A stretch of 64,000 nt of DNA from Parcubacteria group bacterium GW2011_GWC1_45_14 (GTDB taxonomy: Bacteria > Patescibacteriota > Minisyncoccia > Moranbacterales > GWC2-37-73), in contig LCKI01000003.1 of NCBI GenBank assembly GCA_001001345.1, positions 4,614-68,613 on the forward strand, read 5' to 3'. The stretch's first letter is position 1; each line of letters starts with the position of its first letter. Position numbers and translations under genes: made by a program. The notes under the pieces are model-generated. The model had not been told where the DNA came from and did no database searches. It worked only from the letters and a program-made list of their open reading frames with translations. Positions 19,817 through 45,105 of this stretch are shown piece by piece.

Positions 19817-19903
19817 ACAATATATTTCTTAACCTTCAGGGATTTGTTTCAGTTATTGATCATCACTAATTATATTTTTCTCTTACAAGACATTCTCACA
19901 TTC

Positions 19904-20284: not shown

Positions 20285-20324
20285 TGACTTGTGGCTGTGG
20301 GATTATGAGGAGGATATAGAAAAG

Positions 20325-20489: not shown

Positions 20490-20545
20490 ACTCTCTTGTC
20501 ATTCCAGCCTTTAAGCCGGAATCTATATTAATTTTTTATTATAGT

Positions 20546-20573
20546 CATAATTCCACGGCCGTGGAATTATGAC
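20546..20573. repeat. Perfect 28-bp palindrome TCATAATTCCACGGCCGTGGAATTATGA
   Basis: Same family as 16252 and 17032. It lies in the region upstream of the AbrB-like and ArsR genes. Confidence 0.8.
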
Positions 20574-20610
20574 TATGTTGAAAATACAGGTGTTACGTAG
20601 CATGTTACGT

Positions 20611-26754: not shown

Positions 26755-26839
26755 TTTGTTTCAAAAATAAGCGCCTTGTTACGTATACTGGGGGATGTGA
26801 GGCAGGTGGCGGTTTACCGCTTATATGACCATTCTACTC

Positions 26840-27040
26840 CCCTTTCCCCCCATGGTCCAGCTTTTTAGGGGGTGCGAAATTCCCAATCAAAGCAGGGGTT
26901 CACATTATCAATTATAAATTATCAGTTATAAAATCCCCTTATTTAAGCCGAAATACTGTTATCAGTTACAGGTTATCGGTTATCAAAAATGCCCTGATTT
27001 AAGCAAAAATCAACGGCTCAGGTGGGGTGGGCCGTTGAAA
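26840..27040. repeat. Interspersed intergenic repeat, copy A: C-rich/agcttttt box, GTTATC modules and a caacggctcagg..ccgttga hairpin
   Basis: Related copies at 28412..28630, 35705..35825, 37575..37720, 40871..40900 (partial) and 39262..39288 (hairpin only). The hairpin alone also occurs at 17070..17098. Confidence 0.75.
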
Positions 27041-27084
27041 AAAAGGGCTTAGGAAGGCTTCAAAACCTCCTGGGCGTCGTTTTT

Positions 27085-28410
27085 TCAGGCTTCGCACCTT
27101 TCCAAAAATTCCTTCTGGGCGGAGCGTTTTTTCAAGATGCCCATCTTGGCGACTTCGGCGGAGCTTTTTTGGGAAAGTTTTTGCAAAGCCTTGTCGAACT
27201 CGTGCACCTGCGGATTCACTTCCAAGGCGATATAGTTGATGCCCAAAAGCTTGATTCCCCCGAGGGTCCTGACGCGGGAAAGGGCGACATAGCCCATGCC
27301 GAACTCGAACGATTTGCTAAGGTCCATCTCCACCGCGTCCAGCGTCATGCCTTGGCTTTTGTGGACCGTGATCGCCCAAGCGAGGCGGAGCGGAACCTGG
27401 CTTATGGAAACCAAGGTTTTCTCGTTTTCCTCTATCGACCATTTCTCGGGAGTCGCGACGATCGTTTTTCCTGAAACCGTTTCGACGATCGGCATCCCGC
27501 TTCCGTTGAATCCCGCGACTTTGCCCAGTGTGCCGTTGACATAGCCCTGCTCGAAATTGTTCTTCACGAACATCACCACCGCGCCTTTTTTGAGAAAAAG
27601 GATTTCCGGAGCCAGACAACCTTTCTTGACGGAGCTGACCAAAAACTCGTTGCCGTTCGAGGTCATTTCGAAAACCCGCGCTTCCTCTTTGATCTTTTGC
27701 AATTCCGTTTTATTGATGGCGTCCACGTTGACGTTGTGGGTATAGAGCCTAGTCGGCGTGATTTTGCTGGCTATGGATTTGTTTTCCCGCGAAAGGATCG
27801 TAGCCATGGTTTTCGCGTCGCACGACCGGCTCCGGATGTCGGAAAGTATTTTGAGCATTTCCTTGTCTTCCTGGCGGTGCTGTTCTTCCAGATAGCAGAT
27901 TTTCGGATCCATTTCCTTCCAGGAGTCGGATTCGATTACGAACTGCGCCTGCTGGCCGTATTTCGCGACCGGAGGAAGCTGGAAAAAGTCCCCGCAAAGG
28001 ACCACTTGCAATCCGCCGAACGGCTTGAAGGGGTTTTTGAATTTCTTGCAGATGGCGTTGACGATGTCCAACTGGTAGGCGTGAAGCATAGAGATTTCGT
28101 CTATGATCAGCACGCTGGCGGCCGCGAAGCGGTTTTTGTGGTAATGCCTTTTTTTGAGTTTGGCGTATTCGGCCTCGTCGAAAACTTCGCTGATGCCCAT
28201 GCCTGACCAGCTGTGGATCGTCTGCCCGTTCATGTGGGTCGCGGCGATCCCGGTGGAAGCGGTGACCGCGACTCCGATGTTATTCTTTTTGAGATATTCG
28301 ATATATTGCTTGAGCACGTGGGTCTTTCCGCTCCCGGCCGGACCGGTCAAAAAAACGCTGTGCCCAAGTTTGAGGATATCCAACGCGGTTTTTTGTTTCA
28401 TACTAGCCAT
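27085..28410 (-). CDS. Pif1/RecD-family (AAA_30) DNA helicase
   Basis: Walker A 'GPAGSGKT', 'LIIDEISM', 'GDFFQLPPV', 'HKSQGMTLD' and 'YVALSRV'. Confidence 0.8.
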   Translation of the reverse strand: MASMKQKTALDILKLGHSVFLTGPAGSGKTHVLKQYIEYLKKNNIGVAVTASTGIAATHMNGQTIHSWSGMGISEVFDEAEYAKLKKRHYHKNRFAAASVLIIDEISMLHAYQLDIVNAICKKFKNPFKPFGGLQVVLCGDFFQLPPVAKYGQQAQFVIESDSWKEMDPKICYLEEQHRQEDKEMLKILSDIRSRSCDAKTMATILSRENKSIASKITPTRLYTHNVNVDAINKTELQKIKEEARVFEMTSNGNEFLVSSVKKGCLAPEILFLKKGAVVMFVKNNFEQGYVNGTLGKVAGFNGSGMPIVETVSGKTIVATPEKWSIEENEKTLVSISQVPLRLAWAITVHKSQGMTLDAVEMDLSKSFEFGMGYVALSRVRTLGGIKLLGINYIALEVNPQVHEFDKALQKLSQKSSAEVAKMGILKKRSAQKEFLERCEA

Positions 28411-28411
28411 G

Positions 28412-28630
28412 CTACCCCCTTTTAAACAGCTAGTCTAGCTTTTTAGGCTTTAGCTTTTTAGGGGGGTACGAAATCCCCAATCTAGGAAGGGATGCTGTTA
28501 TCTGTTATGAGTTATCGGTTATCAAAATGCCCTGATTTAAGACGGAATGCCGTTATCGGTTACAGGTTATCTGTTATCGAAATGCCTTAATTTAAGCCGA
28601 AAACAACGGCTTAGGTGGCCGAAGCCTTTT
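28412..28630. repeat. Interspersed intergenic repeat, copy B, with a tandemly duplicated GTTATC module
   Basis: Shares ccccttttaaacagctagtctagctttttag..gggggtacgaaatcccc, gttatcggttatcaaaatgccctgatttaag twice, and a variant hairpin with copy A. Confidence 0.75.
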
Positions 28631-28701
28631 AATCCTCCATTTTAAGCCAAAAAGAAAACCGGAATTAATCCCGGTTTTTCTGCTTGAAATCAATAAAAGG
28701 C

Positions 28702-28893
28702 TTATTTGCAAGAATTTGTCTGCAAGCTACCGAATTTGCGATCATATTCCTTTACGAGCTTGAGCTGATCCTTGTTGGCTCGCTTAGTAGCCTCCACGAC
28801 AAGCTTCTTTTGCTCCCTCGAAGATAAATCAAAAAAACTAAGCTCCTTGCCTGCCTTATTGCGTGTAATTTTTTGAATTATTTTTTTCAACAT
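28702..28893 (-). CDS. Small hypothetical protein overlapping the 3' end of the zeta-like gene by 7 nt
   Basis: 63-aa ORF. Its position suggests a possible cognate partner of the zeta-like kinase. Confidence 0.3.
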   Translation of the reverse strand: MLKKIIQKITRNKAGKELSFFDLSSREQKKLVVEATKRANKDQLKLVKEYDRKFGSLQTNSCK

Positions 28894-29603
28894 AATATTT
28901 TGCTTAGTGATTTCTTATTATATGGCATATCCAAGTAATTGTCAATATTGTCTATGTTAAATTTTATTTTTTCAGTCTCATTTGAATAATTTTTTATTAC
29001 CAGATTAATTTCAACATCTTTTCCAAATTCCTTTTTAATAGCGTTTACATTTTCCTTTGCCTTGAAAAATGCATCCACAAAAGCGTCTTTTGGAATATAT
29101 CTGCCCTCGAGCTCCTCTCGCTTTCTCGTAAACTCCCACGCCCTGAGCGGATCCTGATATAAATAAAATACGCTTATGACCCTGCCTTTCCTTAAGGATC
29201 TTTTGATATTTTCACGTGCGATCTCGTATTTTGCAAATGTTCCATCCATTAAGGCGTTTTGTCTATATTTTAAGACATGGTCGTATATCTTTTCGACTCC
29301 AAGCGAAGAAGCGCCTTGGATAATATCTGAATTTTTTCCATTATATTGCGGGATAATTTTTTTGATTTCATCCGCATCTATTCTTACAATTTCAGTAGCA
29401 TTTTTATATTTTGAAAATAGGATTATAAGTTCTTTTGAAAATTCGGTTTTACCCGCACCAGGAGAACCCGCCATGAAAATAGTAAACGGTTTCTCCACTG
29501 ATGGAAAATTATCAAGACTGCAAAATTTATCCAATAAAGTACGTTTTTCTTTTTGGATAAAAATTCTAGCTTCCTGTGATATTTTCAGCTCATCTCCATT
29601 CAT
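28887..29603 (-). CDS. Zeta-toxin-family P-loop kinase
   Basis: 'FTIFMAGSPGAGKTEFSKEL' is a Walker A. The 238-aa size fits zeta/PezT-like proteins. Confidence 0.65.
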   Translation of the reverse strand: MNGDELKISQEARIFIQKEKRTLLDKFCSLDNFPSVEKPFTIFMAGSPGAGKTEFSKELIILFSKYKNATEIVRIDADEIKKIIPQYNGKNSDIIQGASSLGVEKIYDHVLKYRQNALMDGTFAKYEIARENIKRSLRKGRVISVFYLYQDPLRAWEFTRKREELEGRYIPKDAFVDAFFKAKENVNAIKKEFGKDVEINLVIKNYSNETEKIKFNIDNIDNYLDMPYNKKSLSKILC

Positions 29604-29872
29604 TTATCAATTTTATCAATTTTATTATAGAAAAGCAAAAACATCCTCACAAAAAAGTCTGTTTTTAAGAAAATTACCTTCCTGTTTCTCAGTCACTCAC
29701 CTGACAAGAGTAAGAAATGATGCTAATCCGCGAATTCACCCTATTAAATCCCCGACGTGTCAGGGTGCTTGCCCTGTTGAATTTCAATGATTCAACAGGG
29801 TAAACAATTCAACAGGGTAAATGCCAATCCGCGAATTGCGAATATTATCAAAAGATTGAATATGGCTCAATT

Positions 29873-30337
29873 CTACTCCCCCTTCCCTTTAATCTCAATC
29901 CTATCCAATCCATGCTCATAAAGTTCGTCTCCGTACTTATCGATAAACTCATAACGTTTATAAAATCGCTCGTCCTTACCCATCTTCTTTATTTTATCCT
30001 CACCGTATTTCCGCAAAAAATCCCTCTCGCCCAAGCGATCGGCCAACTCTTCCCAGAAAACATCCTCGTCATATTCTTCTTTGAAATGATCGACAAGTTC
30101 TTCGAACTCAGCCGTCGGGAAATATTTCATATCTCCGACAGGTTCATCATCGACGTATTTTTCCAATCCCGCTTCCTGCGCATATGAAAAAATATAGCTT
30201 TCCAAAAAATTAAACTCCTTGAATTTGTCATCCGTCCGGATTGCATTCACCATCCAATTGCCCAAATATACCAATTTGAGCAAATTTCCATATTGCTTCT
30301 TGGTTAGCTGCACATTGATTTTATTGTTTTCAGTCAT
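29873..30337 (-). CDS. Hypothetical acidic protein
   Basis: 154-aa ORF with no recognised motif. Confidence 0.35.
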   Translation of the reverse strand: MTENNKINVQLTKKQYGNLLKLVYLGNWMVNAIRTDDKFKEFNFLESYIFSYAQEAGLEKYVDDEPVGDMKYFPTAEFEELVDHFKEEYDEDVFWEELADRLGERDFLRKYGEDKIKKMGKDERFYKRYEFIDKYGDELYEHGLDRIEIKGKGE

Positions 30338-30391
30338 ATTTTTTTGAAATCCATATCCCAGCCATATATGATTGTATGGAATTATATAAGA

Positions 30392-31282
30392 TTATTTTTC
30401 ATACTTGAATCCGGCTCCTATTTTCCAAACCCCTTTTTCCCTAAACGCCGGGATGTTTTGGCGGCGGGCGGCGTTGAAGATAGCCGGCGCCGATTTCTCG
30501 TGACCCTTGGCGTATTCCGAAAGGGTAATTATTTTTTCGCCTTTGAGATAGGCAATCCTTTTGTGCAGAGATTCCATAAGCGCTAACGCCAGGATTTTTT
30601 CCATCGTCTTGGTGTTCTTTTTGTCACGGTAATCTCCGAATGCCTTGTAGTATTCGGCTTTTTCCTTATCCCTAATTATGATCGGCACGAGCCCGAGTCT
30701 CATCAATTGGTAGCAGATGATCACGCGCCCGATGCGCCCGTTGCCGTCGCAAAACGGGTGGACGGTCTCGAAGTCAAGATGGAATTTCGCGATTTTTTCC
30801 AAAAAGTACGCATCCAGTTCTTTTGAATATTCCTGCAGAGTCGAGTCTATCATAAGCTCGACATGCTCGGGCGCAGGCGCTATATGCGTGCCGACCCTGA
30901 CGTATTCATATTGCTTGCGGAATCTTCCGGCGATGCCGTCATTTATGCCCCCGATCAACATCTGGTGCATCAGTAAAATAAGCTCTTTGTCGATTTCTTT
31001 TTCTTGCGACTTCGTTCGGATATATTCCATGACACGTGCAAGATTCTTCGCTTCAAATATTTCGCGGACATTCAAATCGCGCGAGACCTCCATCTCCAGC
31101 AGGATTTTCTCCGTTTCCTTGAGCGTAAGGGTTGAATTTTCAATGGCATTCGAGTTATAAACGCTTTCCGGCACCTCCGCCTCATCAATCATAACCAAAA
31201 GCGCCTCCTTGCCCTTTCTGAGGGAGTCGAATTCATTTTTAAGCTCTTGTATGCGCTTTTTAATCGGATTTGTTATGGCCAT
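30392..31282 (-). CDS. Fic-family protein, with an AMPylator-type motif
   Basis: Canonical 'HPFCDGNGRIGR'. Confidence 0.85.
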   Translation of the reverse strand: MAITNPIKKRIQELKNEFDSLRKGKEALLVMIDEAEVPESVYNSNAIENSTLTLKETEKILLEMEVSRDLNVREIFEAKNLARVMEYIRTKSQEKEIDKELILLMHQMLIGGINDGIAGRFRKQYEYVRVGTHIAPAPEHVELMIDSTLQEYSKELDAYFLEKIAKFHLDFETVHPFCDGNGRIGRVIICYQLMRLGLVPIIIRDKEKAEYYKAFGDYRDKKNTKTMEKILALALMESLHKRIAYLKGEKIITLSEYAKGHEKSAPAIFNAARRQNIPAFREKGVWKIGAGFKYEK

Positions 31283-31469
31283 ATTTTTTAGTGAATATTA
31301 CAATAACATCATATCATATTCACGTTTTTTTGTCAATATTTAGTGAATATTATCAATATATTGCATAAATTCACTACTTTTTATAGACCATTTCTGCCCT
31401 TAAGGCTTAAATGGGCCTCTTTTATGGAGATGGCATTAGTCAATTTTGTGAAGGTTTTTTATTTTCATT

Positions 31470-31922
31470 TTACTTTTTGCGAAGTTTGAGGGATTTGACG
31501 GTGATGATGGCAAGGCTTGTGATGAGAAAGGTTACGGGGAGAGCAAAAATAAACATCTCCTTGAGACTTGGGAAAAGCAAATCTCCGCTAGGAGAAGCTG
31601 TAAAAATCAAAATAATTGAAATCGGAACATAAATAACCGCAAATTTTTTCCATGCATAAAAAACTTGTTCGCGCAAAAACAGCAACAGGAAAGAAATAAT
31701 AAAAATAGGAACAGAAAAAACAAAAAGTGGCACAAAAATAGGGTTGTAACGATCTATATATTTGTGCAAACACCCTATATCATCCTTTTCACAAAGACCT
31801 AAAATTTCTGGCGAACCGAGTGCGAGGCTTAGCAAGATTATAAACACAGAAAAAGCAATAGTCGAATAGATTTTCTTTTTGTAGCTCATTTTTTTATTTT
31901 TAAAAATTATAAACTTAATCAA
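31470..31922 (-). CDS. Integral membrane protein
   Basis: 150 aa with several TM helices. It overlaps the downstream giant gene by 8 nt. Confidence 0.4.
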   Translation of the reverse strand: MIKFIIFKNKKMSYKKKIYSTIAFSVFIILLSLALGSPEILGLCEKDDIGCLHKYIDRYNPIFVPLFVFSVPIFIISFLLLFLREQVFYAWKKFAVIYVPISIILIFTASPSGDLLFPSLKEMFIFALPVTFLITSLAIITVKSLKLRKK

Positions 31923-34900
31923 TTAATTGGATTCGCTCTATAATCACTATCAGCTTTTCCGCTTCCTCTTTCGGAATACGGAATTTTTCCGGAGCATTTT
32001 CCCTGCTGAACGTTTCTATTTGCTGTTTCACATTGGCAAGCATGGCATTGGTCGCTATGTTATGGCCTTTTTCCAGCTGCTTCCTGGCATTGCCTATCTT
32101 GTCGATGAGCCTGTCTTTGACCGTTTGATGGATGTCCAGAAAGCCGATCATCTTTTCGAGGATTTCCAATGATGTTTCCTTGCTTGCCTCCTCTCCAGGA
32201 CGGATAATGAAATCTTTCTCCCCGTCTCCGTTAATGTCTATTTCCATCTCTCCGACGGAATCGGAAATCGCTATTTCGGCGATCATCCCTTCCATAACCG
32301 GGATGTTTTCAAAAGTCGTGTTTTTCGTTTCGCCTGTTCCGAAAACCTCGTCGATCTCAAAGGTGAATGTCCCCAGATCCTCTCCCTTGAGTATAACATC
32401 TTGAGCGATTCTCCCCTCCGCTCCGGCGTATTTCGTTTCGCCGAATTCCATATAATACGAGTTCGGCACTTCTTGTTCATATCGCCGGATGTCCGAATCC
32501 TGGTCATTGTTTTCGATGATGCCGATATGGTTTCCATTTTCATCTATTATGTCGATCTTAACCGGTGAATGCAGACGGTATCTTAAACGTTTATACTCTT
32601 TTTCTACTTTTGGCTTTTCTGTTGAAATATAAGTTACTTGTTCTTTTTTATTTTGAATAATATTTTTTATAAAGTCTTGCAATGGTGTAGCTTCCAGTAT
32701 ATCAGCATGGTTCCTACTTATTCTAAACTTAAGATCCAAAGGGTTATTGTAAAGTTTGAGATTCAAATAATACCTCTCCTCCCCCTCCATCGCCGCCGCG
32801 CTAGGGACGACCACCGTTTCGTCCCCGTCCTCGGTCAGGATCAACTTGCGGTCGAGGTTGCTGAGATTGTCCGGGCAAAAGAGAATGTCGCAATCGTCAT
32901 AACTTATTCCGCGCACCGTATCCAAGCCCCAGCCGGCGATTTGGATCACTTCCATATGCTCCGGCGCTCGCCAAGAATCAAGATTATTATGGGTCTCAAT
33001 GGAGCGGGAAAGGAAGGTGTTTTTCAGGACATTGGGCGAATCGGTGTCGTCCTCCTCCGGCTCCGTGCGCTCTCCGTTGTCCCCAAGCAAAAAGCTTTTG
33101 AACGAACCGAAACCGCTTATGCTCTCGCCGTAGATGGAACGGAAATCATAAATATCCCTGACATCATAATCAAATTCGATGACCGGACTTTGCACGATTT
33201 CGAAATATTTTTTCGACGGCAGAAGGTTGTAGGCGCTGGCCATGTTCTCTCCCAAGCCACGCGCAGTCTCCTTATCCAGAAGCAATCCCTTGAGAAGATT
33301 GATACCGTCCCCATGAAGAAGCCCCGCCATAGCTTTGGGCGTCCCGATTTGGGGCGTGCCGACCATGATCAGCCTGTCCACAAGACCAGCCTCTCCGGAT
33401 TTTTCCAAACGGTCGATGACCACTTTCGCCAGCAAGCCCCCGTTGCTGTGCCCGACAAGTGAAACCTTTCCGCTCTTGGAAGACTTCGCCATTTCGCGGA
33501 TCTGCTCAAGGACATTGGCCGTGCTCCCGTCCTCAAGCCTCGTCCCTTCGTCGACGATCTCTTCCAATGGCATGCGCCAATCATATGGGAAAGCGCGCCA
33601 TTCCTTGATCGCCCCGCTCTCGACGAATTCGTCCATCGACAGCATGAATTTTTTGTACACGTTGTCGGCGAAACCGAACGCTTCGTCTATCGCGTCGCGG
33701 GTATAGATGCCGGGATCGACGCTCTCTCCGCTTTCCGGATCCATAAATAGCTGCCGGACATCCTGGTTGCGGTTAGGCTCCCAGAGCTGATCTTCAGTTC
33801 CTATTACGCCTTCACGGTATAGCCGGCTGGCCTGATGGCCGGGCAGGAAAAGGACGCTGGAATGGCAATTTTCCTGACAAGCCGATCCGACAGCGTCTTC
33901 GTGCTTAAATTCTTGTGCCCAAGGATAATAATCGATTATCTTGCCGGAACCGTACGGATTATCGCAAATCTTGTCATTATTCGAATCTACACACTTAGCT
34001 TCGTTCTTTTTCCAATAATTGCCACCGATCGGCAAATCGAGATTGAAAGAAATACCGTTAGAAAAATTGGCCTGAAATATCGAAATGCTAGTCCCCATGA
34101 AATTATTATTGTAAAACAGGTTGTTGTTACTGCTGGACAAATAAGCTCTTTCGAGAGTGTTTTTCCTGATAATATTATTGTCGGACCCCGAAAAATCGAT
34201 AGTGATATTTTTATCCGGAGAAGTTATGTTTTCCAACAAAGAACCCTTCGTATTCAAAAAACGTATCTGGGCGTTATTTTCCGATAATGTCAGGTTTCTA
34301 AATGTCACATCGGCACAATTCACGCAATAAATTATTCCCGCATCCGCCAACCCGTCATACGTCACGCCTTCAATGTTTTTTATAAAATAAATCGATTTTT
34401 CCTCGACTTTATTACTTGTATCTATATCGTTGGTGTCTATATTCCCTCCTCCCTGCATTAAAAAATTGTAAGGCTTGTTGCCGGACATGGCATTACCATG
34501 AAGCTTTTCATAATAACCCTCGACTATCCGCATACCGTCCGAAAGATTTCCATCAATCTTGTTGTTATCCAAAATATCGCCCCTACCACCGTAAATGTAA
34601 ATGCCCGCTTCCCCATTTCCCGAAATATCATTATTTTCATAGGTGTTGCCGGTAGTACTGCCGTTATAGTTTTGCCATGCTTGTGAGACTCCATACTTAT
34701 TACCGCCACTTATGGTATTGTTGGAGAGAATATTTCTCATGGCATAATTAAGTTTTATTCCACTATCGATGCTTTGGATTATCGCACTATCAGTGACGAT
34801 ATTATTTCCGGAATACTGAAAGTAAACGCCGTTCCGGTTATTTTTCAGATTAACAAAGGAAACTTCGTTGTAACTTGAGGATGAAGAAAAATAGATTCCA

Positions 34901-35601
34901 TAATAAAAGGAATTAATGGTGACATTCTTAATCTTGATGCCTTTTTTATAAGAGGCATAAATTCCGGATCCCGTGCCGGTTCCCGTGATGGAGTGGCCAT
35001 TACCATCCAATGTTATATTATCGCTGTTTATCTGGATAGACTCGTTCACGTCTTGCGTCAAGGCGCAGGTTTTGCTGGCCACATCCCAGCTACCGATAGA
35101 TCCACAATCCCCTCCGGTAGCGTCATTTTTTATGAATTTCGTGCTCTTTCTCGGCTGGATGAAAATCACATGCCTTTCGCCTATGTCTTGGACGAAAGAA
35201 AACGAGCCTTCCGCGTCGGTGGCGAATGGCTCGTGATTTTGATAACCGTCCTGGTATTTGTGATACGTCGTTTTGGGACTGAGTCCGGAAAGGACCATTT
35301 GGGAAGACTCGGCGGCGCCTGAAGATTCCACTTCCAAAACCACCATCTCCGGCGCGGATTCCATCCTGACCGCCACCTCCTCGGCACTTTCCAATTTTAT
35401 GTTCAAATACTCGCTGTCCGTGATCTCGAAACGCGTCCCGGTTCCGGAAAAGGTCCCGGGCATATGCGGAAATTCCTCGGCGGTTTGGGCGAAAGAAACC
35501 GGCGCGGCGAAAAGCAAAAATGACGCTACTGACAAAAAGAAAGTAGATTTTTTTACGGCTTCGCGCATCGCTTTTTTAAAATCGTTATTCTTATTCTCCA
35601 T
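31915..35601 (-). CDS. Large secreted protein with a signal peptide, right-handed beta-helix repeats and an alpha/beta-hydrolase (GHSxG lipase/PGAP1-like) domain
   Basis: N-terminal 'KKSTFFLSVASFLLFAAPVSFAQTAEE'. Repeated 'NNxIxGG/NNxI' beta-helix-like units. 'VSLVGHSNGGLLAKVV' nucleophile elbow. Confidence 0.6.
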   Translation of the reverse strand: MENKNNDFKKAMREAVKKSTFFLSVASFLLFAAPVSFAQTAEEFPHMPGTFSGTGTRFEITDSEYLNIKLESAEEVAVRMESAPEMVVLEVESSGAAESSQMVLSGLSPKTTYHKYQDGYQNHEPFATDAEGSFSFVQDIGERHVIFIQPRKSTKFIKNDATGGDCGSIGSWDVASKTCALTQDVNESIQINSDNITLDGNGHSITGTGTGSGIYASYKKGIKIKNVTINSFYYGIYFSSSSSYNEVSFVNLKNNRNGVYFQYSGNNIVTDSAIIQSIDSGIKLNYAMRNILSNNTISGGNKYGVSQAWQNYNGSTTGNTYENNDISGNGEAGIYIYGGRGDILDNNKIDGNLSDGMRIVEGYYEKLHGNAMSGNKPYNFLMQGGGNIDTNDIDTSNKVEEKSIYFIKNIEGVTYDGLADAGIIYCVNCADVTFRNLTLSENNAQIRFLNTKGSLLENITSPDKNITIDFSGSDNNIIRKNTLERAYLSSSNNNLFYNNNFMGTSISIFQANFSNGISFNLDLPIGGNYWKKNEAKCVDSNNDKICDNPYGSGKIIDYYPWAQEFKHEDAVGSACQENCHSSVLFLPGHQASRLYREGVIGTEDQLWEPNRNQDVRQLFMDPESGESVDPGIYTRDAIDEAFGFADNVYKKFMLSMDEFVESGAIKEWRAFPYDWRMPLEEIVDEGTRLEDGSTANVLEQIREMAKSSKSGKVSLVGHSNGGLLAKVVIDRLEKSGEAGLVDRLIMVGTPQIGTPKAMAGLLHGDGINLLKGLLLDKETARGLGENMASAYNLLPSKKYFEIVQSPVIEFDYDVRDIYDFRSIYGESISGFGSFKSFLLGDNGERTEPEEDDTDSPNVLKNTFLSRSIETHNNLDSWRAPEHMEVIQIAGWGLDTVRGISYDDCDILFCPDNLSNLDRKLILTEDGDETVVVPSAAAMEGEERYYLNLKLYNNPLDLKFRISRNHADILEATPLQDFIKNIIQNKKEQVTYISTEKPKVEKEYKRLRYRLHSPVKIDIIDENGNHIGIIENNDQDSDIRRYEQEVPNSYYMEFGETKYAGAEGRIAQDVILKGEDLGTFTFEIDEVFGTGETKNTTFENIPVMEGMIAEIAISDSVGEMEIDINGDGEKDFIIRPGEEASKETSLEILEKMIGFLDIHQTVKDRLIDKIGNARKQLEKGHNIATNAMLANVKQQIETFSRENAPEKFRIPKEEAEKLIVIIERIQLID

Positions 35602-35835
35602 GACAAAAAATCATCAGCCCCAAGAATCTATCTATATTCCGATTTTACCACGCCAGCAACACTTCGCATAGCATTACTAAGCGAGCCTGAGGGAATCAAG
35701 TAACCAGTTCGTCAAGAAACACCGAATTTAAGCCGAGATACACATTATCGATTATGAATTATCAGTTATCAAAAATGCCCTGATTTAAGCCGAAACCAAC
35801 GGCTCAGGCGGGCTGAGCCGTTGAAACTACCCTTT

Positions 35836-36816
35836 TCAACCCTTTGTCGACAACAGCGTCGTGACGAGCGCTGTCATTTGGTCTTTTTTCTTCGGATCGC
35901 TCTCGGCGATAAGCAAGGTCAGAACAGTCAGAGCGGCGGGGTTGATTATTCTCGCTCCCTTCGTGCGGGTTTTGCGCAAAAACCACACGAAAGCGAACGC
36001 TCCGGAACGCTTGTTGCCGTCGACGAACGGATGGTTTTTCACCATGAAATATAGGAGGTGCGCCGCTTTCTCTTCGACCGTGGCATAGACCGGCTTGCCG
36101 CCGAAAGACTGCATCACGTTTCCGACGATTCCTTCCACGCTTCCGCCTTTTCTCTCCTGCGCGAAAATATCCGTCGCCTCGCCTTTTCTCATCAATTCCC
36201 CACGAAGACTCGCGATCGCTTCTGAAAGTTCGGTCCCGGTCAGTTTCACCGCCCTCTTGGTCGTTCCGATGGGCCTCAGCTCTTCCTTGTCATAGGCGTC
36301 CAGCGAAACCCAAGTGCCGGCGAATTCCTTGATCAAGTCCAGCACCATTTTCGGATCCAAGGTCACGTGCTCCGGCAAAAGCGCTTGGATGTCCGCGACC
36401 GCCTTCATGAAAGAGTCATAATTCTTGCCGATCCGTTGGCGGTTGATGGTGTAGCCTTTCGTGATATGCTCGCGCAAAGTCCTTGTCGCCCATCTTCGAA
36501 ATTCCGTAGCTGTTTTCGAATTGACCCTATACCCGACTGAAATAATGGCATCTAAATTGTAATATTCTACCTGATAAACCTTGCCGTCAGCGGCAGTTGT
36601 TGCATTTTTTGCAACAACTGCTTTTCTCTGCAGCTCACCTTCTTTAAAAATATTCCTTAAATGGCGGGATATTACCGATTTATCGCGCCCAAAAACGTCA
36701 GCAATCTGATCCAAAGATGCCCAAATAGTCTCATGTTGAAAATCTCCCTTGAGCTCGATCGCCCCGTTTTCGGCTTGGTAAATCACCATATTATTTTGCA
36801 ACTTTTTCTTTTTCAT
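35836..36816 (-). CDS. RhuM-family N-terminal domain fused to a Doc-type Fic domain
   Basis: N-terminus 'ETIWASLDQIADVFGRDKSVISRHLRNIFKEGEL' is RhuM-like. C-terminus 'HPFVDGNKRSG' is a Doc/Fic motif. Confidence 0.75.
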   Translation of the reverse strand: MKKKKLQNNMVIYQAENGAIELKGDFQHETIWASLDQIADVFGRDKSVISRHLRNIFKEGELQRKAVVAKNATTAADGKVYQVEYYNLDAIISVGYRVNSKTATEFRRWATRTLREHITKGYTINRQRIGKNYDSFMKAVADIQALLPEHVTLDPKMVLDLIKEFAGTWVSLDAYDKEELRPIGTTKRAVKLTGTELSEAIASLRGELMRKGEATDIFAQERKGGSVEGIVGNVMQSFGGKPVYATVEEKAAHLLYFMVKNHPFVDGNKRSGAFAFVWFLRKTRTKGARIINPAALTVLTLLIAESDPKKKDQMTALVTTLLSTKG

Positions 36817-36925
36817 TTTTTTTGGTTTTGATAATGGTTATAGTGATATAGTATCACTCATTATCCTTCCTTGCAAATCGCTTTGTTTCCTATCCTTTAA
36901 CTAAGCTGTTATTGAGCCGACAAAA

Positions 36926-36950
36926 AAGGCTGGTTGCCCAGCCTTCCCGT
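36926..36950 (-). terminator. Terminator of the RDD-family gene
   Basis: aggctgg-gcaa-ccagcct hairpin plus a T-run on the minus strand. Confidence 0.5.
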
Positions 36951-36992
36951 TATTTCACCTTCGCATACGCATGGCGGTCGAGATATTTCCCG

Positions 36993-37517
36993 TCATTTTT
37001 TCCGGTAAATAACCACGGAATCTCCGATGAAGTCATGAAGCGCCTGCTTCCTTTTCGTGAAAGCCGCGATCAAGTAGCCGATATTGAAAGTCACGGAAGA
37101 AACTATCTTCCCCACGACTTCGCGCATGAGGACCTTTTTGAAAGTGAGTTTCTCGAAATTTTCCGAAACGACCATGAGACCGAAAAGTCTCTTTCCGAGC
37201 GTGTCCTGATATTTGTCCGTCATGAACGCGAAATAGATGAATGAAACGAATGGTATAAGGATCCAACCGACTATAGGGATAAGGACCAAGGAAAAAATGG
37301 CGACCGAAAGTATCAGTCCGTCAATCATGGAAGCGACAAACCTGATCCAAAAGCCGGCATATTTAATTTCCGCCGTCGTCGCCTGCGCTCCTGCTTGGGG
37401 TTGGATAGGAGCTTCGCTCACTGACTGACCCGCGGAAGCGTCGAATTTTTGGGAACCGCATTTATGGCAGAAAGTTCCGCCCTCGGCGATCTGTTCACCG
37501 CAATTGTGACAATACAT
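36993..37517 (-). CDS. RDD-family membrane protein with an N-terminal zinc ribbon
   Basis: 'MYCHNCGEQIAEGGTFCHKCG' zinc ribbon followed by RDD-like TM segments. Confidence 0.6.
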   Translation of the reverse strand: MYCHNCGEQIAEGGTFCHKCGSQKFDASAGQSVSEAPIQPQAGAQATTAEIKYAGFWIRFVASMIDGLILSVAIFSLVLIPIVGWILIPFVSFIYFAFMTDKYQDTLGKRLFGLMVVSENFEKLTFKKVLMREVVGKIVSSVTFNIGYLIAAFTKRKQALHDFIGDSVVIYRKK

Positions 37518-37747
37518 TTTTTTATTGGCTTAAAAATTATTAATCGAAATTTGAAGGGTTCCCATGCTTGTGCTTCCATTTTACCCCCTTTTGAAAAGCT
37601 GGTCTAGCTTCTCAGGCTTTAGCTTTTTAGGGGGGGATAGAAATAGTGTCATCAGTTATCGGTTATCAAAATGCCATATCCAAGCCGAAACCAACGGCTT
37701 TTACGCTCTGAGCCGTTGAATTAGGCTTTTTTGGCTATGCTTTTCCC

Positions 37748-37776
37748 TTGACTTTTCCGCTTTAAAATGCTATGCT
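37748..37776 (+). promoter_or_regulatory. Sigma-70-like promoter: TTGACT, 17 nt spacer, TATGCT
   Basis: Consensus-like -35/-10 with a 17-nt spacer. The RBS aaaggagg lies 7 nt before ATG 37819. Confidence 0.55.
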
Positions 37777-37818
37777 TTCCGGAAGTTAACTTGAAAAACT
37801 AACCCAAAGGAGGATGCG

Positions 37819-38307
37819 ATGCCACTGTTCATTTGCAGTACCCATTGCGAAAGCTGTGAGGAAACGGCTACCTGCCCGATGAAAGGACAAGTAGCGACGC
37901 AGACGGCGGAAAAAATCGGGGATCTGCCGGATCCGATCAAGAAGATCATGCTCGCAAAAATCGAAAAGTTGGCCCCCGCGGATTTTTTGGAGTCGACTGA
38001 AATCAGCGTTTTCAATTTTCTCAGCTTGATCAAGTTTCTGCAAAACGACGGCATCGACCTCACCGTCAGCGACATCGCTTTCCGGCTCGAGGATGCCATC
38101 AGCAAAAAGCGTCCAGACATCAAGGATAACGATCTTGCCTTCAAAGAAAAGATACAAGCCATGATCCTGACGGTCGCCCAACGGATTTTCGAATCAGTCA
38201 GCGGAAACTGCCAGCGAGACTGCCGCTCCTGCTATCTCGCCGAGGAGTGCAAACTCCTAAAGGACTTAGTCTCGGTATCCGACAGCGCAAAAAACGGACG
38301 TCCCTGA
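37819..38307 (+). CDS. Cys-rich hypothetical protein
   Basis: N-terminal 'CSTHCESCEETATCP' and C-terminal 'CQRDCRSCYLAEEC' cysteine clusters. Confidence 0.4.
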   Translation: MPLFICSTHCESCEETATCPMKGQVATQTAEKIGDLPDPIKKIMLAKIEKLAPADFLESTEISVFNFLSLIKFLQNDGIDLTVSDIAFRLEDAISKKRPDIKDNDLAFKEKIQAMILTVAQRIFESVSGNCQRDCRSCYLAEECKLLKDLVSVSDSAKNGRP

Positions 38308-38336
38308 CATTCCAACGAGAAAGAAAGGTGAAAAAA

Positions 38337-38633
38337 ATGGAATATTTCTTTTCATTCCTTCTTGTTCCGACCAATTGCGTGCTCGGAGTCAATATTTTCC
38401 AGCACACCATAAAGACGGTCGGAAACGAGTGGCGCGACAAATTACCCTTCACGGTCTATTCTTCGCTCATGTTACTGGTCGCCCTCGCATGCATGATGCT
38501 TGTGATCGCCTGCTTGTTCAAGGATGAACATTTGCCGGAAGCCTTTAGGATAAACATCCTCATCCTTATCCACCTTGGACTGATACTGTTGTATTGGAAA
38601 AAGCGATACCCATTGCCTACAAAAGGGCAATAA
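38337..38633 (+). CDS. Small membrane protein, reading from the internal Met of ORF 38247..38633
   Basis: Three hydrophobic segments, co-directional with 37819..38307. Confidence 0.4.
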   Translation: MEYFFSFLLVPTNCVLGVNIFQHTIKTVGNEWRDKLPFTVYSSLMLLVALACMMLVIACLFKDEHLPEAFRINILILIHLGLILLYWKKRYPLPTKGQ

Positions 38634-38641
38634 AACCACCA

Positions 38642-38690
38642 CCCCCTCCCAGGATTTTCTTGGGAGGGGTTTTATTTTATTTTTTACCAA
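38642..38690 (+). terminator. Rho-independent terminator
   Basis: ccctcccagg-attttc-ttgggagggg hairpin plus a T-run. Confidence 0.65.
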
Positions 38691-38741
38691 AGAAAAAAGG
38701 CCTTCCGTTCGGAAGGCCCTGTTTGCCAAAATTGGCGGATG

Positions 38742-39260
38742 CTACTTTGAGAATTTCCCGCTTTCGAAATCATCGGCGATATTTTTGAGAAAATCCAATC
38801 TTCTCTTGAGTTCGGGAATATTTTTTTGACTGAATTCCCTTATTTTTTTCCTGCCTTTGAACGGGTCGGTTTTTTGAAGCTCGTTCAAGCTTCCGATCAA
38901 ATCCGCCTGCGTTTGCGCAAAGGATATGTGGGTCTCGATCACGCGCTGGACCCCGAGCCTATCGAAAGCTTCCCTTGATGACTCTTCCTTCATGACCAAA
39001 CATAGCCGTTCAAGCTGGAAACTGATTTCTTCCAAGACGTCTTCCACTCTGTTGATCTCTTGGTGGCCTTTTAGGGACACATAATGTTTTCTAAAGCTTT
39101 GCCACTGGGTTTGCGCACATGCGGCCATGATGCACCCCAGGATGATCAAAATTGAGCCTACCATATTCGTCCTCCTTCCGAGGTTTCGGGTTTCAGGTTT
39201 TAATAAATCAAATAACTGAAAAACCATCATACACCCGTCCTTCAAAATTATCAACTCCAA
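38742..39260 (-). CDS. Hypothetical protein; the real start may be an internal Met
   Basis: ORF with one TM-like segment. Confidence 0.3.
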   Translation of the reverse strand: MELIILKDGCMMVFQLFDLLKPETRNLGRRTNMVGSILIILGCIMAACAQTQWQSFRKHYVSLKGHQEINRVEDVLEEISFQLERLCLVMKEESSREAFDRLGVQRVIETHISFAQTQADLIGSLNELQKTDPFKGRKKIREFSQKNIPELKRRLDFLKNIADDFESGKFSK

Positions 39261-39352
39261 TCCAACGGCTTAGGCCGAAAAGTCGTTGAAAAAAGCCGGG
39301 GGTGCGAATCGCACTCCCGGCTGATAGGTTTCCGGATGTTCCGGTCATGTTC

Positions 39353-40063
39353 TCATATGCTGCTGATGTACCCTTCCCGATATTTCACCAGCATGTCTTC
39401 ATATTCGTCGAGCGAATCGACGATAAACTGCTCGATGGCGGAGAACGGAAGGGTCTTCGTTTCAAGATGATGGTCCGTCTGATAGGGCGAATCGCGGACG
39501 GTCCCGTCGACCAGGAATTCGGCCGTGAATTTTTTGGCGCCCGGATCCACGCTGATGATCTTACCGGATATCGCATGATAAAATCCCCTGGATACCCGCA
39601 CCCACTCGCCGATCTTCGGACGGAAGATCGCACCGCTCAGCAGTTCTTTGAACTTATTGCCGATGTTGTCAGGAAACTTTCTGGTGAGATCACGGACTTT
39701 TTCGCAAATATCCTTCCGCTCCTGTCCGGAAAATTCCGATTCCTCAAGCTTTTTGCAGGCCAGTTGGAATTTAGACAAAAGCCTGTTAAGAGTTTCCATG
39801 TTGGCGAGCCAATCCCTCTCGCTTTCCAAGTCAAAAGGAAATTCCTTGAAGTTCATCTCCCACAAAGGCCTTCTGGTCTCCTCGATGCAATCGCGCGCCA
39901 ATGCCAAAATCGCCTCCAGCCGGTTTCCGATCTCATGCTTCTTCATCTCGATATCCTCCCTTGGTTGATTTTCAAGTTGCTGCCGATAAGTCCCAATTTT
40001 AGCAACTGCGCGGATTTCGTCAAGAAGCGAGGAGCTGCCACCACACGAAGGAAACCGCACCAT
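39353..40063 (-). CDS. Hypothetical protein with a C-terminal Tudor/KOW-like segment
   Basis: 'IGEWVRVSRGFYHAISGKIISVDPGAKKFTAEFLVDG' resembles small beta-barrel RNAP-interacting domains. This is a weak assignment. Confidence 0.3.
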   Translation of the reverse strand: MVRFPSCGGSSSLLDEIRAVAKIGTYRQQLENQPREDIEMKKHEIGNRLEAILALARDCIEETRRPLWEMNFKEFPFDLESERDWLANMETLNRLLSKFQLACKKLEESEFSGQERKDICEKVRDLTRKFPDNIGNKFKELLSGAIFRPKIGEWVRVSRGFYHAISGKIISVDPGAKKFTAEFLVDGTVRDSPYQTDHHLETKTLPFSAIEQFIVDSLDEYEDMLVKYREGYISSI

Positions 40064-40911
40064 AGCCGAAGTTCAAATCTTCGGACTGAAAGAAAAAGGC
40101 CGGGAAGATTCCCAGCCTCATCGGATCAAACATGAAAAAACATTATGGCCAAACTTGTAAAATGTCCGCGGTTTCCTGCCGTTCTTTTGCCAGACAGCCG
40201 CACGCATCTCCGCAAACGGCGGATCCGCAGCAGCCCTTCCCGCTTTTCCTCGCCTCCGCCACTTCGAACGCATGGCGGACGAAATCGTCATCAACCGAAA
40301 CCAAAACGTTGCCTCCGGCTCCTATCTCTTTCGCGCATTTTTGGCACATAATCTCCTCCTTGTTTTTTCCGCTTAGTCCATATCCCACGCTTGAAACATG
40401 CTGATTATATCCGGATGATGCTTCCAGGACACCAGACAACTTTCAAGATTAGAGACAATTCTCCAGGGAATCAGCAAACAATCGATGATCGTTTCTTTCA
40501 CTATGGCACATTTCTTTTTCGAATCCTCCATGCTCAGAAAGAAAGTCAGCGTCACGCTTGCGAGAATAATAAAAACCAATATATCCATAAACTGTCCTAT
40601 CATGGCCGTCCTCCTTTTTTGAAAAGCAAATTAAACTGCCTAGCAACCTCCCTGATATTGTTCCAAAGCGGATATCTGCGCCCATCGACCCAGTTGGTGA
40701 ACATTCCCCAGGCCAATGCGGCCAAAAGCAATAAAAACAAAATCATGATGTCGTTATTGGGAATACCCATAGCTCTCTCCTTCCCTTTTATTGTTAAAGA
40801 AAATTGAAAACTCCTGTTGCCTCCATATTAACCCCTTTTTACCTACAGTTCAAGCGAGGAATAAGCGCTACCGGCCATCAGTTATCCGTTATCAAAAATA
40901 TGGACCTTTCC

Positions 40912-40940
40912 TTGACTTTTAGGCTGAAATCTGCTATAAT
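40912..40940 (+). promoter_or_regulatory. Sigma-70-like promoter: TTGACT, 17 nt spacer, TATAAT
   Basis: Perfect -10 and near-perfect -35. The RBS gggagg lies before ATG 41034. Confidence 0.55.
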
Positions 40941-41033: not shown

Positions 41034-41219
41034 ATGAGAGGACACCTAACAGATGCGGAATTGATGGCCCACCGCTTCAATAAGGATGAGGACGGCAAGC
41101 CGCTACTTTCGGACAGCGAGGTCAACTGGGTGTCCAGCCATCTACTGGACTGCCCGGAATGCCTTGAGCGGAGCGAGGCTCTGGCCGAAGAAAGACTCGC
41201 TTCCAAAACCCCGACCTGA
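41034..41219 (+). CDS. Small protein with a zinc-binding anti-sigma (ZAS, HxxxCxxC) motif
   Basis: 'SSHLLDCPEC'. Confidence 0.35.
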   Translation: MRGHLTDAELMAHRFNKDEDGKPLLSDSEVNWVSSHLLDCPECLERSEALAEERLASKTPT

Positions 41220-44500: not shown

Positions 44501-45105
44501 AGGATCTGCATCGGGCGAAGGCTCTTGAGATCGTCCTTGATTCCCCTGAACTGCTCTTTGAGTTCTTCCAAAGCTTTCTCCAATTCCTTGCTGTCGGCTT
44601 TGGCTGATTTTACTTCCTTCTGCTTGTTCTTATATTCTGATTCCAACTGATCCAAAACGGATTCGCGGGCTTCTTCATCGACATCCTTCACGATATATGA
44701 AGAGAAGTAAACGACTTTCTCAAGTTCCATCAGCGAGATACCCAAGGCGAGGCCGATCCTGGACGGAACACCCCTCAAAAACCAAATATGGGAAACAGGC
44801 ACGGCCAATTTGATGTGCCCCATCCTTTCGCGCCTAACAATCGAGCGGGTAACTTCCACTCCGCATTTGTCGCAGACGATCCCTTTGTAACGGATCCTTT
44901 TGTATTTTCCGCAATAACACTCCCAGTCCTTCGAAGGTCCGAAGATCTTCTCACAGAAAAGTCCGTCTTTTTCATACCTCTGCGTCCTGTAGTTGATAGT
45001 TTCAGGCTTGGTAATTTCGCCGTGCGACCAGTTCATGATCTCCTCCGGGCTCGCCAGCTTGAGCTTCACACTATTGAAGTCACTTACCTTGGTGATATTT
45101 TCCAT
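41518..45105 (-). CDS. rpoC: DNA-directed RNA polymerase subunit beta'
   Basis: 1195 aa. The Zn-binding '[35 protein letters not shown]' and conserved NADFDGD-region homologues. Confidence 0.97.

Follow-up and report, generated by a model that had tools for sequence, protein, structure and literature searches.

The genomes of candidate-phyla-radiation (CPR) bacteria are tiny and nonetheless carry variable defence islands, and the island analysed here raises the question of why one short intergenic sequence recurs in front of unrelated genes. The window, by which we mean the entire 64-kb stretch of DNA that was analysed, is bacterial chromosome from Candidatus Moranbacteria/Parcubacteria GW2011_GWC1_45_14, a CPR bacterium from groundwater metagenomes. 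It contains an accessory island of mosaic GC content (∼13–41.4 kb) between rpoC and core genes, and in this island the same 100 to 250 bp are found upstream of genes for a RadC-methylase fusion and a type IIG restriction-modification enzyme (cassette A), a PIF1 helicase (B), a beta-helix lipase (C), an RDD protein and RhuM-Fic (D), and small membrane proteins (E). On balance, we favour the explanation that these repeats are co-oriented promoter/operator cassettes that double as recombination junctions, in a manner resembling the promoter-early stem-loops (PeSLs) of T4-type phages.

Composite repeats in front of island genes

Different searches agree on the homology of the copies. First, all copies that a first-pass annotation of this DNA had listed are present, and a direct-repeat search placed 26829–27055, 28407–28648, 35716–35841, 37576–37736 and 40873–40901 in families D2, D3, D6, D7, D8, D10, D15 and D16. 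Here, D7 is the hairpin (17071, 27010, 28603, 35796 and 37691), D2 the hairpin with the adjoining linker, D3 the GTTATC module with seven copies, and D15 and D16 are the C-rich/AGCTTTTT box. By motif count, GTTATC clusters at 26958–26979, 28497–28573, 35765, 37655–37662 and 40881–40888, and six of the eight occurrences of CAACGGC in the window lie within hairpins. Second, the copies share 74–88% identity in BLASTN (A/B, 80% over 169 nt; A/C, 83% over 101 nt; B/D, 88% over 60 nt), and their homology is clear when the five intergenic regions are aligned with MAFFT as read on the minus strand, a check that the first-pass annotation had proposed. Third, a pattern describing the four-heptad array has five matches compared to 0.00 in 100 shuffles, and a pattern describing the junction of hairpin arm and array has four matches compared to 0.00 in shuffles, which excludes an origin by chance. 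Fourth, an nhmmer profile built from 13 repeat units detects seven significant units in the window (E values 2e-14 to 3e-8), all on the minus strand and all at 26.9–40.9 kb; the remainder of the 64 kb has none. Together with the nine units of a related Moranbacteria locus (L165), all 16 units (7/7 and 9/9) are co-directional with the downstream gene. Finally, TRF detects period-7 arrays of ∼4 copies and, in cassette B, 2.3 copies of a 55-bp period. The doubled unit described earlier for this copy is real, and cassette A is likewise doubled.

The real genes surrounding the copies are all on the minus strand, and the copies are therefore read on that strand. Read in this way, a cassette has four parts. 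The first is a palindrome, CAACGGCTCAG-N5-CTGAGCCGTTG, of constant length (26–27 bp) at the cassette boundary. The second comprises one to four units of ∼45–56 bp (one or two in the window, up to four in the related lineage), each with a conserved 20-bp linker (CGGCTTAAATCAGGGCATTTT; also written ATTTCGGCTTAAATCAGGGCATTTT) followed by four contiguous direct heptads. The heptad consensus is NGATAAC and the array reads T-GATAAC-N-GATAAC-NN-RTAAC-N-GATAAY; a second flavour has GRTGAC. The third part consists of one to five A-tract boxes CTAAAAAGCT (one or two in the window, up to five in the related lineage), and the fourth, ...AAGCT-AGACC-AGCTnTTnAAAAGGGGG-TAnnAT-GG, contains TnGAC, a G-rich 17-bp spacer and TAnnAT. 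The modules also occur separately, i.e., palindrome alone, promoter alone and array alone. The proposal that modules are duplicated and shuffled between copies, and that a shared modular cassette of promoter/operator type has been propagated through an accessory region, is supported, as is the placement of the GTTATC arrays in promoter regions.

The distribution of the cassettes bears on how they spread. In a scan of metagenomes, the composite was found only in the homologous island of related Moranbacteria. These loci, referred to as lineage 2, were identified in a metagenome collection by the junction pattern (L129, L132, L134 and L144, extended as L165–L168) and come from the Moranbacteria metagenome-assembled genomes (MAGs) GWE2_47_10, GWE1_49_15 and GCA_003508985.1. 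Their cassettes are all gene-sense and precede a 182-amino-acid (aa) RhuM gene, PIF1, a 112-aa gene and, with four arrays, an MmeI-family restriction-modification enzyme. One further metagenome match, L148, falls inside an rpoC homologue and is a chance match. Among viral contigs, the linker-plus-heptad pattern has one match, which lies inside a 472-aa open reading frame (ORF) and is due to chance, and the junction pattern has three matches without homology; no PIF1 relative, no match to the promoter module and no true cassette copy were found there. In a scan of a genome collection with the generic pattern GATAAYNGATAAYNNNTAAYNGATAA, the matches listed are all perfect heptamer microsatellites that are unrelated to the cassettes. 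Most belong to cyanobacteria and Bacteroidota, and no other cassette module or any homology accompanies them; this pattern is too generic to test confinement to the island. Rfam covariance models had no match at the gathering score in the 64 kb. Copies confined to the window and explainable as tandem duplication of one promoter had been named as an outcome that would speak against a propagated cassette. Within the reach of the searches, the copies are indeed confined to the island; however, they are scattered in front of genes of different kinds, unlike tandem duplicates of a single promoter.

Dispersed copies of ∼100–250 bp that contain a hairpin and vary in number and internal structure would also be expected of a miniature inverted-repeat transposable element (MITE)-like non-autonomous element or of transposon ends, the alternative raised by the first-pass annotation. 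Yet the search for terminal inverted repeats and target-site duplications that it had recommended found neither, and such inverted repeats as do occur are either the internal palindrome or A/T-rich pairs that arose by chance. The uniform orientation tied to gene direction, the independent occurrence of the modules, the lack of a true copy in the viral collection and the restriction of the composite to one homologous island argue against transposition as well, and the ∼60 larger ORFs scanned have no Pfam/NCBIfam match to a transposase. We consider a MITE-like origin extremely unlikely.

The individual copies differ in which modules they combine. Cassette A (26829–27038, minus strand) lies upstream of the RadC-N6/N4 methylase gene (ATG at 26754) and contains the palindrome (27038–27010), units A1 (27009–26957) and A2 (26953–26902) with four heptads each, an AAGCT box, a −35 element TGGACC (26859–26854), the G-rich 17-bp spacer and a −10 element TAGAAT (26836–26831; promoter scan, 9/12). 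Cassette B (28407–28631, minus strand), upstream of the PIF1-family helicase gene, has a degenerate palindrome (28631–28603) in which only the right arm AGCCGTTG is intact, units B1 (28602–28550) and B2 (28547–28496), two CTAAAAAGCT boxes (28466–28437), a −35 TAGACT (28437–28432) and a −10 TAGCAT (28414–28409). Cassette C (35700–35824, minus strand), upstream of the 1228-aa beta-helix/lipase gene, has a perfect palindrome (35824–35797; 11-bp arms, 5-nt centre), unit C1 (35795–35742) and a partial unit (35741–35700). Its array reads TTGATA-17-GATAAT (35772–35744 on the minus strand; scan, 10/12) and it is without the AAGCT/G-spacer module; an extended −10, TGGTAAAAT, follows. Cassette D (37576–37719, minus strand), upstream of the RDD/RhuM-Fic operon, comprises the palindrome (37719–37692), unit D1 (37689–37648) with two GATAAC heptads and one GATGAC heptad, two AAGCT boxes, a −35 TAGACC (37606–37601) and a −10 TAAAAT (37583–37578; scan, 9/12). 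Cassette E (40823–40909, minus strand), the first promoter after rpoC, has no palindrome; unit E1 (40909–40866), with two GATAAC heptads and degenerate ones, is followed by a −35 TTGAAC (40853–40848), the G-rich spacer and a −10 TAATAT (40830–40825). The genes downstream of E encode 56-, 76- and 68-aa proteins and have their own Shine-Dalgarno (SD) sequences.

Two palindromes stand alone on the minus strand. Palindrome F (39262–39288) lies directly after a canonical terminator (∼39331–39295) and before a promoter TTGATA-17-TATGAT (39254–39226); palindrome G (17071–17099) is identical to palindrome A at 29/29 positions and is followed by a different promoter/operator family. D and E also share a homologous divergent module, CCTTGACTTTT...TGCTATnnT, on the plus strand in front of real plus-strand genes with strong SDs. 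Next to D it spans 37746–37776 (CCTTGACTTTT..TGCTATGCT) before a gene at 37819–38307 (SD AAGGAGG), and next to E, at 40910–40940, it reads TTGACT-17-TGCTATAAT (11/12) before a 61-aa gene at 41034–41219 (SD GGGAGG). The promoter region of the zeta-toxin gene (29603–29898, minus strand) is related to the cassettes and has no array. It contains a G-spacer promoter-like site TTGAGA-17-TAGAAT (29898–29870), a module ATTCGCAATTCGCGGATT common to lineage 2, and a promoter TTGTGA-17-TATAAT. Between the zeta −10 (TATAAT) and the ATG are two and a half perfect 9-bp direct repeats ATTGATAAA (29625–29603) with the TTGATAA core of the heptad arrays; their location is that of an operator-like element. A promoter module ATTCGCAATTCGCGGATTAG(T/C)AT..TTACTCTTG is present both upstream of the zeta toxin (29700–29850) and upstream of the lineage-2 MmeI restriction-modification gene (L134, 2765–2800). 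The intergenic regions of the island are, thus, a mosaic of several reusable modules.

Promoter-like core and heptad arrays

In cassettes A, B, D and E the fourth part has the geometry TnGAC-17-TAnnAT, and a promoter scan calls the sites of A and D on the gene strand. Lineage 2 has similar promoters with G-rich spacers (TGGCCA-17-TAGAAT and TTGCAA-18-TATAGT), and AAARGGGRNTANNAT has seven matches compared to 2.5 expected, with five of the seven in island promoter regions. For comparison, the rpoB promoter is canonical sigma-70 (TTGACA-17-TAAATT). The GGGGG in the C-rich box had previously been taken for the ribosome-binding site of the downstream gene. Instead, the G-run lies in the conserved 17-bp spacer of a predicted sigma-70-type promoter, and ATGG would be the end of its −10. 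Three observations bear on this point. The ATG of TAnnATGG opens only ORFs of 3 codons in A, 53 codons in D (out of frame) and 10 codons in E. The real starts in A, D and E are 46–70 nt farther downstream, in E with its own strong SD GGAAGGAG. Finally, the similarity between D and E runs ∼45 nt beyond ATGG with a 7-nt indel and, because of this indel, the stretch represents a noncoding leader and not a conserved peptide. The G-run is, then, more likely a promoter spacer than a ribosome-binding site, and only in cassette B could GGGGG act as an SD. The gene caller starts PIF1 at the second ATG (28401; 438 aa), only 7 nt past the −10 of cassette B, suggesting that the PIF1 mRNA from this cassette may be leaderless. 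In our model, the cassette would supply a sigma-70 promoter for whichever accessory operon lies downstream, with an A-tract that resembles an UP element. A sigma-54 reading of TGGCAT-TTTTGATAA was rejected by inspection, as the GG-N10-GC spacing fails.

The modules could also be assigned the other way round, such that the heptad arrays are tandem promoters (TTGATA of heptad 1 as −35 and GATAAT/C of heptad 4 as −10, 17 bp apart) and the C-rich/AAGCT/GGGGG part is a transcribed leader with an SD. The scan calls the arrays of C (10/12) and A2 (9/12), and in cassette C, without the G-spacer module, the array leads as promoter candidate beside the extended −10. Moreover, TTGATA is the −35 of the stand-alone promoter at F, B has GGGGG 5 nt ahead of an in-frame ATG, and an inverted repeat C6TAAAAA/TTTAAAAG5 could mask the G-run. 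However, most arrays end in GATAAC, without the critical last T of a −10, and the ATG after GGGGG opens only the trivial ORFs described above in A, D and E. Also, the invariant T-A...A-T at a fixed 17 bp from TnGAC is predicted by a −10/−35 pair and not by an SD with a start codon. The C-run of the inverted repeat is missing from the lineage-2 PIF1 cassette, the remainder of which is 100% conserved. We regard tandem promoters within the arrays as possible but unlikely, and prefer the G-spacer module as the candidate promoter.

What, then, would the arrays do? They are operator-like in having four contiguous heptads each, with one to four arrays per cassette at varying distance to the −35, and TTGATAA is present in all eight island promoter regions at 26.9–40.9 kb, including the non-homologous ones of zeta, Fic and F. 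The omega and MetJ repressors bind cooperatively to tandem boxes of 7–8 bp. Omega binds 7–10 heptads WATCACW that overlap promoters, and at least four contiguous heptads are needed for full activity (PMC9499535); RptR represses a restriction-modification/toxin defence island via three 9-bp direct repeats (PMC12255303). By analogy to omega and RptR, and given the recurrence of TTGATAA in island promoters, we suggest that the heptad arrays most likely function as an operator for a small, cooperatively binding DNA-binding protein. A shared operator would put many island operons under one regulator.

Other readings of the heptads were rejected. A DnaA box was dismissed on inspection, as only TTATC is common with TTATCCACA, and the IHF consensus is not matched. 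Fur boxes contain GATAAT hexamers and require an inverted arrangement; the arrays contain only direct repeats. A phase-variable simple repeat does not fit either, as each array has only four heptads and these are imperfect. Separately, unrelated genomes, among them an Anaerolineaceae MAG (L002, 4277–4302), have perfect tandem arrays of heptamers beside promoter-like sequences; in one example, TTGACAC x3 followed by TGATAAC x5 lies directly upstream of TATAAT. Arrays of this kind at promoters may be more widespread than the little work on them suggests.

The regulator was sought by Pfam, PHROGs and NCBIfam scans of ∼60 ORFs plus 72 small ORFs. Neither these family scans of window and lineage-2 ORFs nor searches of PDB sequences identified a heptad-binding protein. 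The Pfam tables for the ∼60 larger ORFs contain no ribbon-helix-helix (RHH)/Omega or ParA protein, although a very divergent RHH protein could escape. The N-terminal helix-turn-helix (HTH) domain of RhuM, which is encoded behind arrays in both lineages, is only a lead as a candidate heptad binder.

Some observations weigh against the cassettes being promoters with an attached operator. Each array alone has the geometry TTGATA-17-GATAAY, such that an array could be a promoter rather than an operator. The inverted repeat CCCCCCTAAAAA/TTTAAAAGGGGG spans the −35 and spacer of B (28413–28468) and D (37579–37642), and could form a cruciform or a leader hairpin that sequesters a GGGGG SD. The arrays are 13–170 bp upstream of the −35, a variable distance that fits no simple repression or activation geometry. 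There is no RHH/Omega family among the best 25 of 59 Pfam families for the 72 small ORFs of both lineages, and no PDB sequence match for six candidates (63-, 112-, 154-, 162- and 61-aa proteins and RhuM-Fic). Promoter activity and operator function are predictions from sequence, as are a common regulator and the mechanism of recombination.

Arrays of at least four contiguous heptads also resemble omega/ParB parS sites, doubled arrays flank the helicase gene, and a zeta-toxin gene is present, as if the heptad or 55-bp arrays were replication-origin iterons or a parS-type centromere of an integrated plasmid-like element. This is very unlikely: the family scans detect no Rep, ParA or RHH ParB gene, the arrays form five separate sites, each directly upstream of promoters and genes, and they are conserved in the second lineage, which is without zeta. 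An operator common to the island promoters remains our preferred function for the arrays.

The palindrome and the exchange of gene modules

The palindrome has 11-bp arms around a variable centre of 5–6 nt, with the outer 7–8 bp conserved. Among its eight distinct copies the right arm AGCCGTTG never varies, in contrast to the decaying left arm and inner stem. LexA control was rejected as a reading of the palindrome, which is absent upstream of recA and the lexA-like gene. The hairpins of A, C and D are predicted to fold with −14 to −22 kcal/mol (z-scores −2.8 to −5.3) on both strands, and those of B and F fold no better than shuffled sequence. Counting of pairs among the copies revealed no covariation beyond shuffles, and the inner stem is not maintained. 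Because the sequence is conserved, the length fixed and the centre variable, a protein-recognition site fits the palindrome better than an RNA structure.

The hairpin had been described as being followed by T-runs and as a likely terminator. Our terminator scan does not call it. A T-run of at least 5 nt on the gene strand is absent in B, C, D and F, and only hairpin A is trailed by a T-rich run (ATTTTT, gene strand). An intrinsic, possibly bidirectional, terminator or an insulator against upstream read-through would agree with the stability of the A, C and D hairpins on both strands and with a position that is invariably between the 3′ end of a gene and the next promoter, and the stem-loops of T4 PeSLs terminate effectively (PMC2839356). 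Nevertheless, separate canonical terminators with T-tracts already precede the palindrome in B (28678–28655), F and the related locus L165. At copy D, which faces a divergent promoter, there is no co-directional upstream gene to terminate. With folding of B and F no better than that of shuffles, we find a terminator or insulator function doubtful, and the hairpin, as judged from these features, is not the main terminator.

Comparison of the two lineages addresses whether the cassettes are also exchange points. The window and lineage 2 have few proteins in common (RDD, 51%; a 184-aa protein, 60%; RhuM, 68–72%; a 68-aa protein, 79–86%). Two proteins, PIF1 (27085–28441; 98.9%) and an ArsR-like winged HTH protein (19890–20277; 99% protein identity), are near-identical to counterparts in L144/L129/L134, which points to recent horizontal exchange of single-gene modules. 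PIF1 with its core promoter forms a 1361-bp block of 95–97% nucleotide identity that ends in the AAGCT/−35 region and at the stop codon. In two other places, homology between the window and lineage 2 passes through a palindrome, F or G, and halts at its downstream edge. Palindromes A and G bracket a 9.9-kb block of low GC content (31–40%) with restriction-modification genes. Replacement breakpoints are, thus, located at cassettes for the PIF1 module and the F and G junctions, in a small sample of two lineages; the palindromes coincide with module boundaries for F, G and the A–G block but not for the PIF1 module. We suggest that the cassette serves as a junction for insertion, deletion and replacement of gene modules by recombination between strains, a role suggested by the dispersal of the same 100–250 bp in one orientation through the island.

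A stronger proposal would be that the palindrome is a site-specific recombination site, dif/pdif-like or a miniature attC-like site, at which a host tyrosine recombinase inserts and excises modules, such that the cassette spreads with the modules. The constant 26–27-bp geometry, the conservation of sequence rather than pairing and the exact halt of homology at the downstream edges of F and G would be expected of such a site. Similarly, A and G are identical including the variable centre while flanking the 9.9-kb block, the lineage-2 counterpart block is also flanked by palindromes and carries a different restriction-modification system, and the presence of terminators ahead of the palindrome means that it is not needed for termination. 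However, the ∼60 larger ORFs of the window have no Pfam/NCBIfam match to an integrase or recombinase, and the recently exchanged PIF1 module has its breakpoints within the promoter and at the stop codon rather than at palindromes. A palindrome is also lacking from cassette E and from several promoters. An invariant right arm with a decaying left arm, as in B, is unexpected for a core site with two arms, and there is no polymorphic empty site for the 9.9-kb block, which has the same arrangement in all 14 lineage-1 contigs (14/14). We judge a dedicated recombination site to be improbable. Combining it with the predicted regulation, the island downstream of rpoC would be a gene-capture platform in which palindromes are recombination sites and each module is under a heptad-operated promoter of one island-wide regulator. 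This combined scenario is less probable still; if true, the island would resemble an integron whose cassettes come with, or acquire, regulated promoters of their own.

The setting of the island is consistent with a mosaic of modules. On one side it is bordered by rpoC (41518–45105, minus strand) and rpoB (45164–48601, minus strand), and on the opposite flank by genes for EF-P, recA, ftsK, a lexA-like gene, a sigma-70-like (rpoD-like) gene and a HAD hydrolase. The RadC-methylase protein is a fusion to an N6/N4 methylase. Besides this gene and that for the type IIG restriction-modification enzyme, the island encodes a HARE-HTH nuclease, DUF3644 and DUF2779 proteins, the PIF1/Dda-like helicase, the zeta toxin, two Fic proteins, RhuM-Fic, the 1228-aa beta-helix/lipase and small membrane proteins. 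GC content shifts per module: PIF1 with 52% is flanked by segments of ∼35%, and 20.6–26.8 kb has 30–36%.

Several other features of the window were recorded alongside. Four genes lie at the far edge of the island (11364–13097, 9625–10287, 10372–10956 and 10978–11208). In this order, they encode a 577-aa sigma-70-family protein with RpoD-like regions only at residues ∼20–280 and a long extension at its C-terminus, a LexA/S24-like repressor, an ORF6N/Rha-like protein and a Pur-alpha-like (DUF3276) protein of 76 aa. The pair of repressor and ORF6N genes looks phage-derived. A second, unrelated interspersed family comprises seven intergenic palindromes of ∼34 bp, TCCTCATAAT-N3-ACGGCCGT-N3-ATTATGAGGA, several with TATAAT (15575–15614, 16191–16230, 16246–16285, 16282–16321, 17026–17065, 20272–20311 and 20536–20575). 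It precedes PaaX-like, 209-aa, MazE/AbrB-like, ArsR-like and 103-aa genes, and is probably the operator/promoter set of one of the regulators encoded downstream. A 102-nt repeat with 74% identity (14037–14138 and 17191–17292) lies within ORFs of 394 and 315 aa, neither of which matches any family; these are probably paralogous island genes. A 290-aa reverse transcriptase (1213–2085) has a group II intron reverse transcriptase/maturase as top match, below the cut-off, and weaker matches to DRT/retron reverse transcriptases; it adjoins a 135-nt direct repeat (2618–2752/3082–3216; 88% identity). This locus could be a retroelement or a defence reverse transcriptase with a structured noncoding RNA. 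Lastly, a ∼150-bp direct repeat (53300–53480/58057–58240; 85% overall, central ∼110 bp near-identical) flanks an HlyD-AcrB (RND efflux) operon and may have arisen by duplication of a promoter/leader or as the two flanks of a module that was inserted.

To our knowledge, very little is known about transcription signals, regulators and mechanisms of gene flux in CPR bacteria, and almost nothing about their mobile-element biology. The locus provides a concrete, testable set of promoter and operator sequences and a candidate island-wide regulon of restriction-modification, Fic/RhuM, PIF1 and secreted lipase genes; the zeta promoter shares only the TTGATAA motif. The heptad arrays could be used as bait for a new CPR transcription factor. 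At the same time, the comparison of Moranbacteria species provides evidence that short shared regulatory cassettes mark the exchange points of modules that differ in GC content.

Comparison with known systems

The operator-like layer is best compared with systems that read direct repeats. The omega operators of the inc18 plasmid pSM19035 (PMC9499535) are likewise contiguous, non-palindromic, direct 7-bp repeats that recur at several promoters within one accessory element; the functional minimum there, four contiguous repeats, equals the array size here, and the window has a zeta-toxin gene. However, NGATAAC/GRTGAC differs from WATCACW, with at best 5–6/7 matches in one register, four heptads lie upstream of the promoter here compared to 7–10 over the promoter there, and no omega/RHH, epsilon or ParA gene was detected in the window. 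Both RhuM genes of lineage 2 have, overlapping the −10 region in front of them, an inverted pair AGTGATA-N3-TATCACT (L165, ∼6975–7000; L144, ∼6040–6075, downstream of PIF1); TATCACT is an exact omega heptad WATCACW and could be a chance match. In enteropathogenic E. coli, the promoter of the RptR-controlled restriction-modification/toxin defence island likewise contains short direct repeats (PMC12255303), and on the opposite strand the AAGCT boxes read TTTAGCTTT, with 7/9 positions of the RptR repeat TTTAGCTAA. By contrast, there is no intact TAGCTA palindrome here, the elements recur at many promoters here compared to one there, and six island proteins have no match to the RptR entry 9R2Z among PDB sequences, a set in which the presence of this entry was not confirmed.

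The palindrome invites comparison with sites that separate mobile modules. The pdif/dif modules of Acinetobacter plasmids and Xer-exploiting elements (PMC6449649) are accessory modules, including toxin systems, separated by short palindromic sites, with arms of ∼11 bp, a centre of 5–6 bp and a module content that differs between relatives. pdif/dif sites have 28 bp with 11-bp XerC/XerD arms and a 6-bp centre, compared to 11+5(6)+11 = 26–27 bp with symmetric arms here. The Moranbacteria palindrome differs in having near-identical arms without visible XerC/XerD asymmetry, no recombinase was identified, and some module breakpoints lie off the palindrome. Integron attC sites are larger (∼57–141 bp), with R''-L''/L'-R' boxes and extrahelical bases, and only the YCAAC...GTTGR ends of the palindrome resemble R boxes; no Phage_integrase/IntI match was found in the ∼60 larger ORFs, and every module here has its own promoter, in contrast to integron cassettes, which are mostly promoterless. 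The Moranbacteria cassette is, thus, not an omega operator, not an attC site and not demonstrably a dif module.

The closest known system is that of the PeSLs, promoter and stem-loop cassettes that mediate modular shuffling in hyperplastic regions of T4-type phages (PMC2839356, PMC4122927). Each is a small composite intergenic repeat that combines a stem-loop and an A/T-rich tract with a sigma-70-like promoter, and each is concentrated in hypervariable regions with non-essential genes, here with 7/7 units within the island and none in the core flanks. In both, breakpoints of indels and replacements between related genomes, here two lineages, fall in the repeats. The differences are that the element described here resides in a CPR bacterial chromosome with rpoBC and recA and not in a phage, that the two have no sequence similarity and viral contigs contain no copies, that the stem-loop here is without a T-tract and usually lies behind a separate terminator, and that it has an extra operator-like layer of heptad arrays. 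The Moranbacteria cassette is, therefore, PeSL-like but not a PeSL and, if our explanation is correct, the concept that regulatory cassettes act as linkers for recombination would extend from T4 phages to the chromosomes of bacteria.

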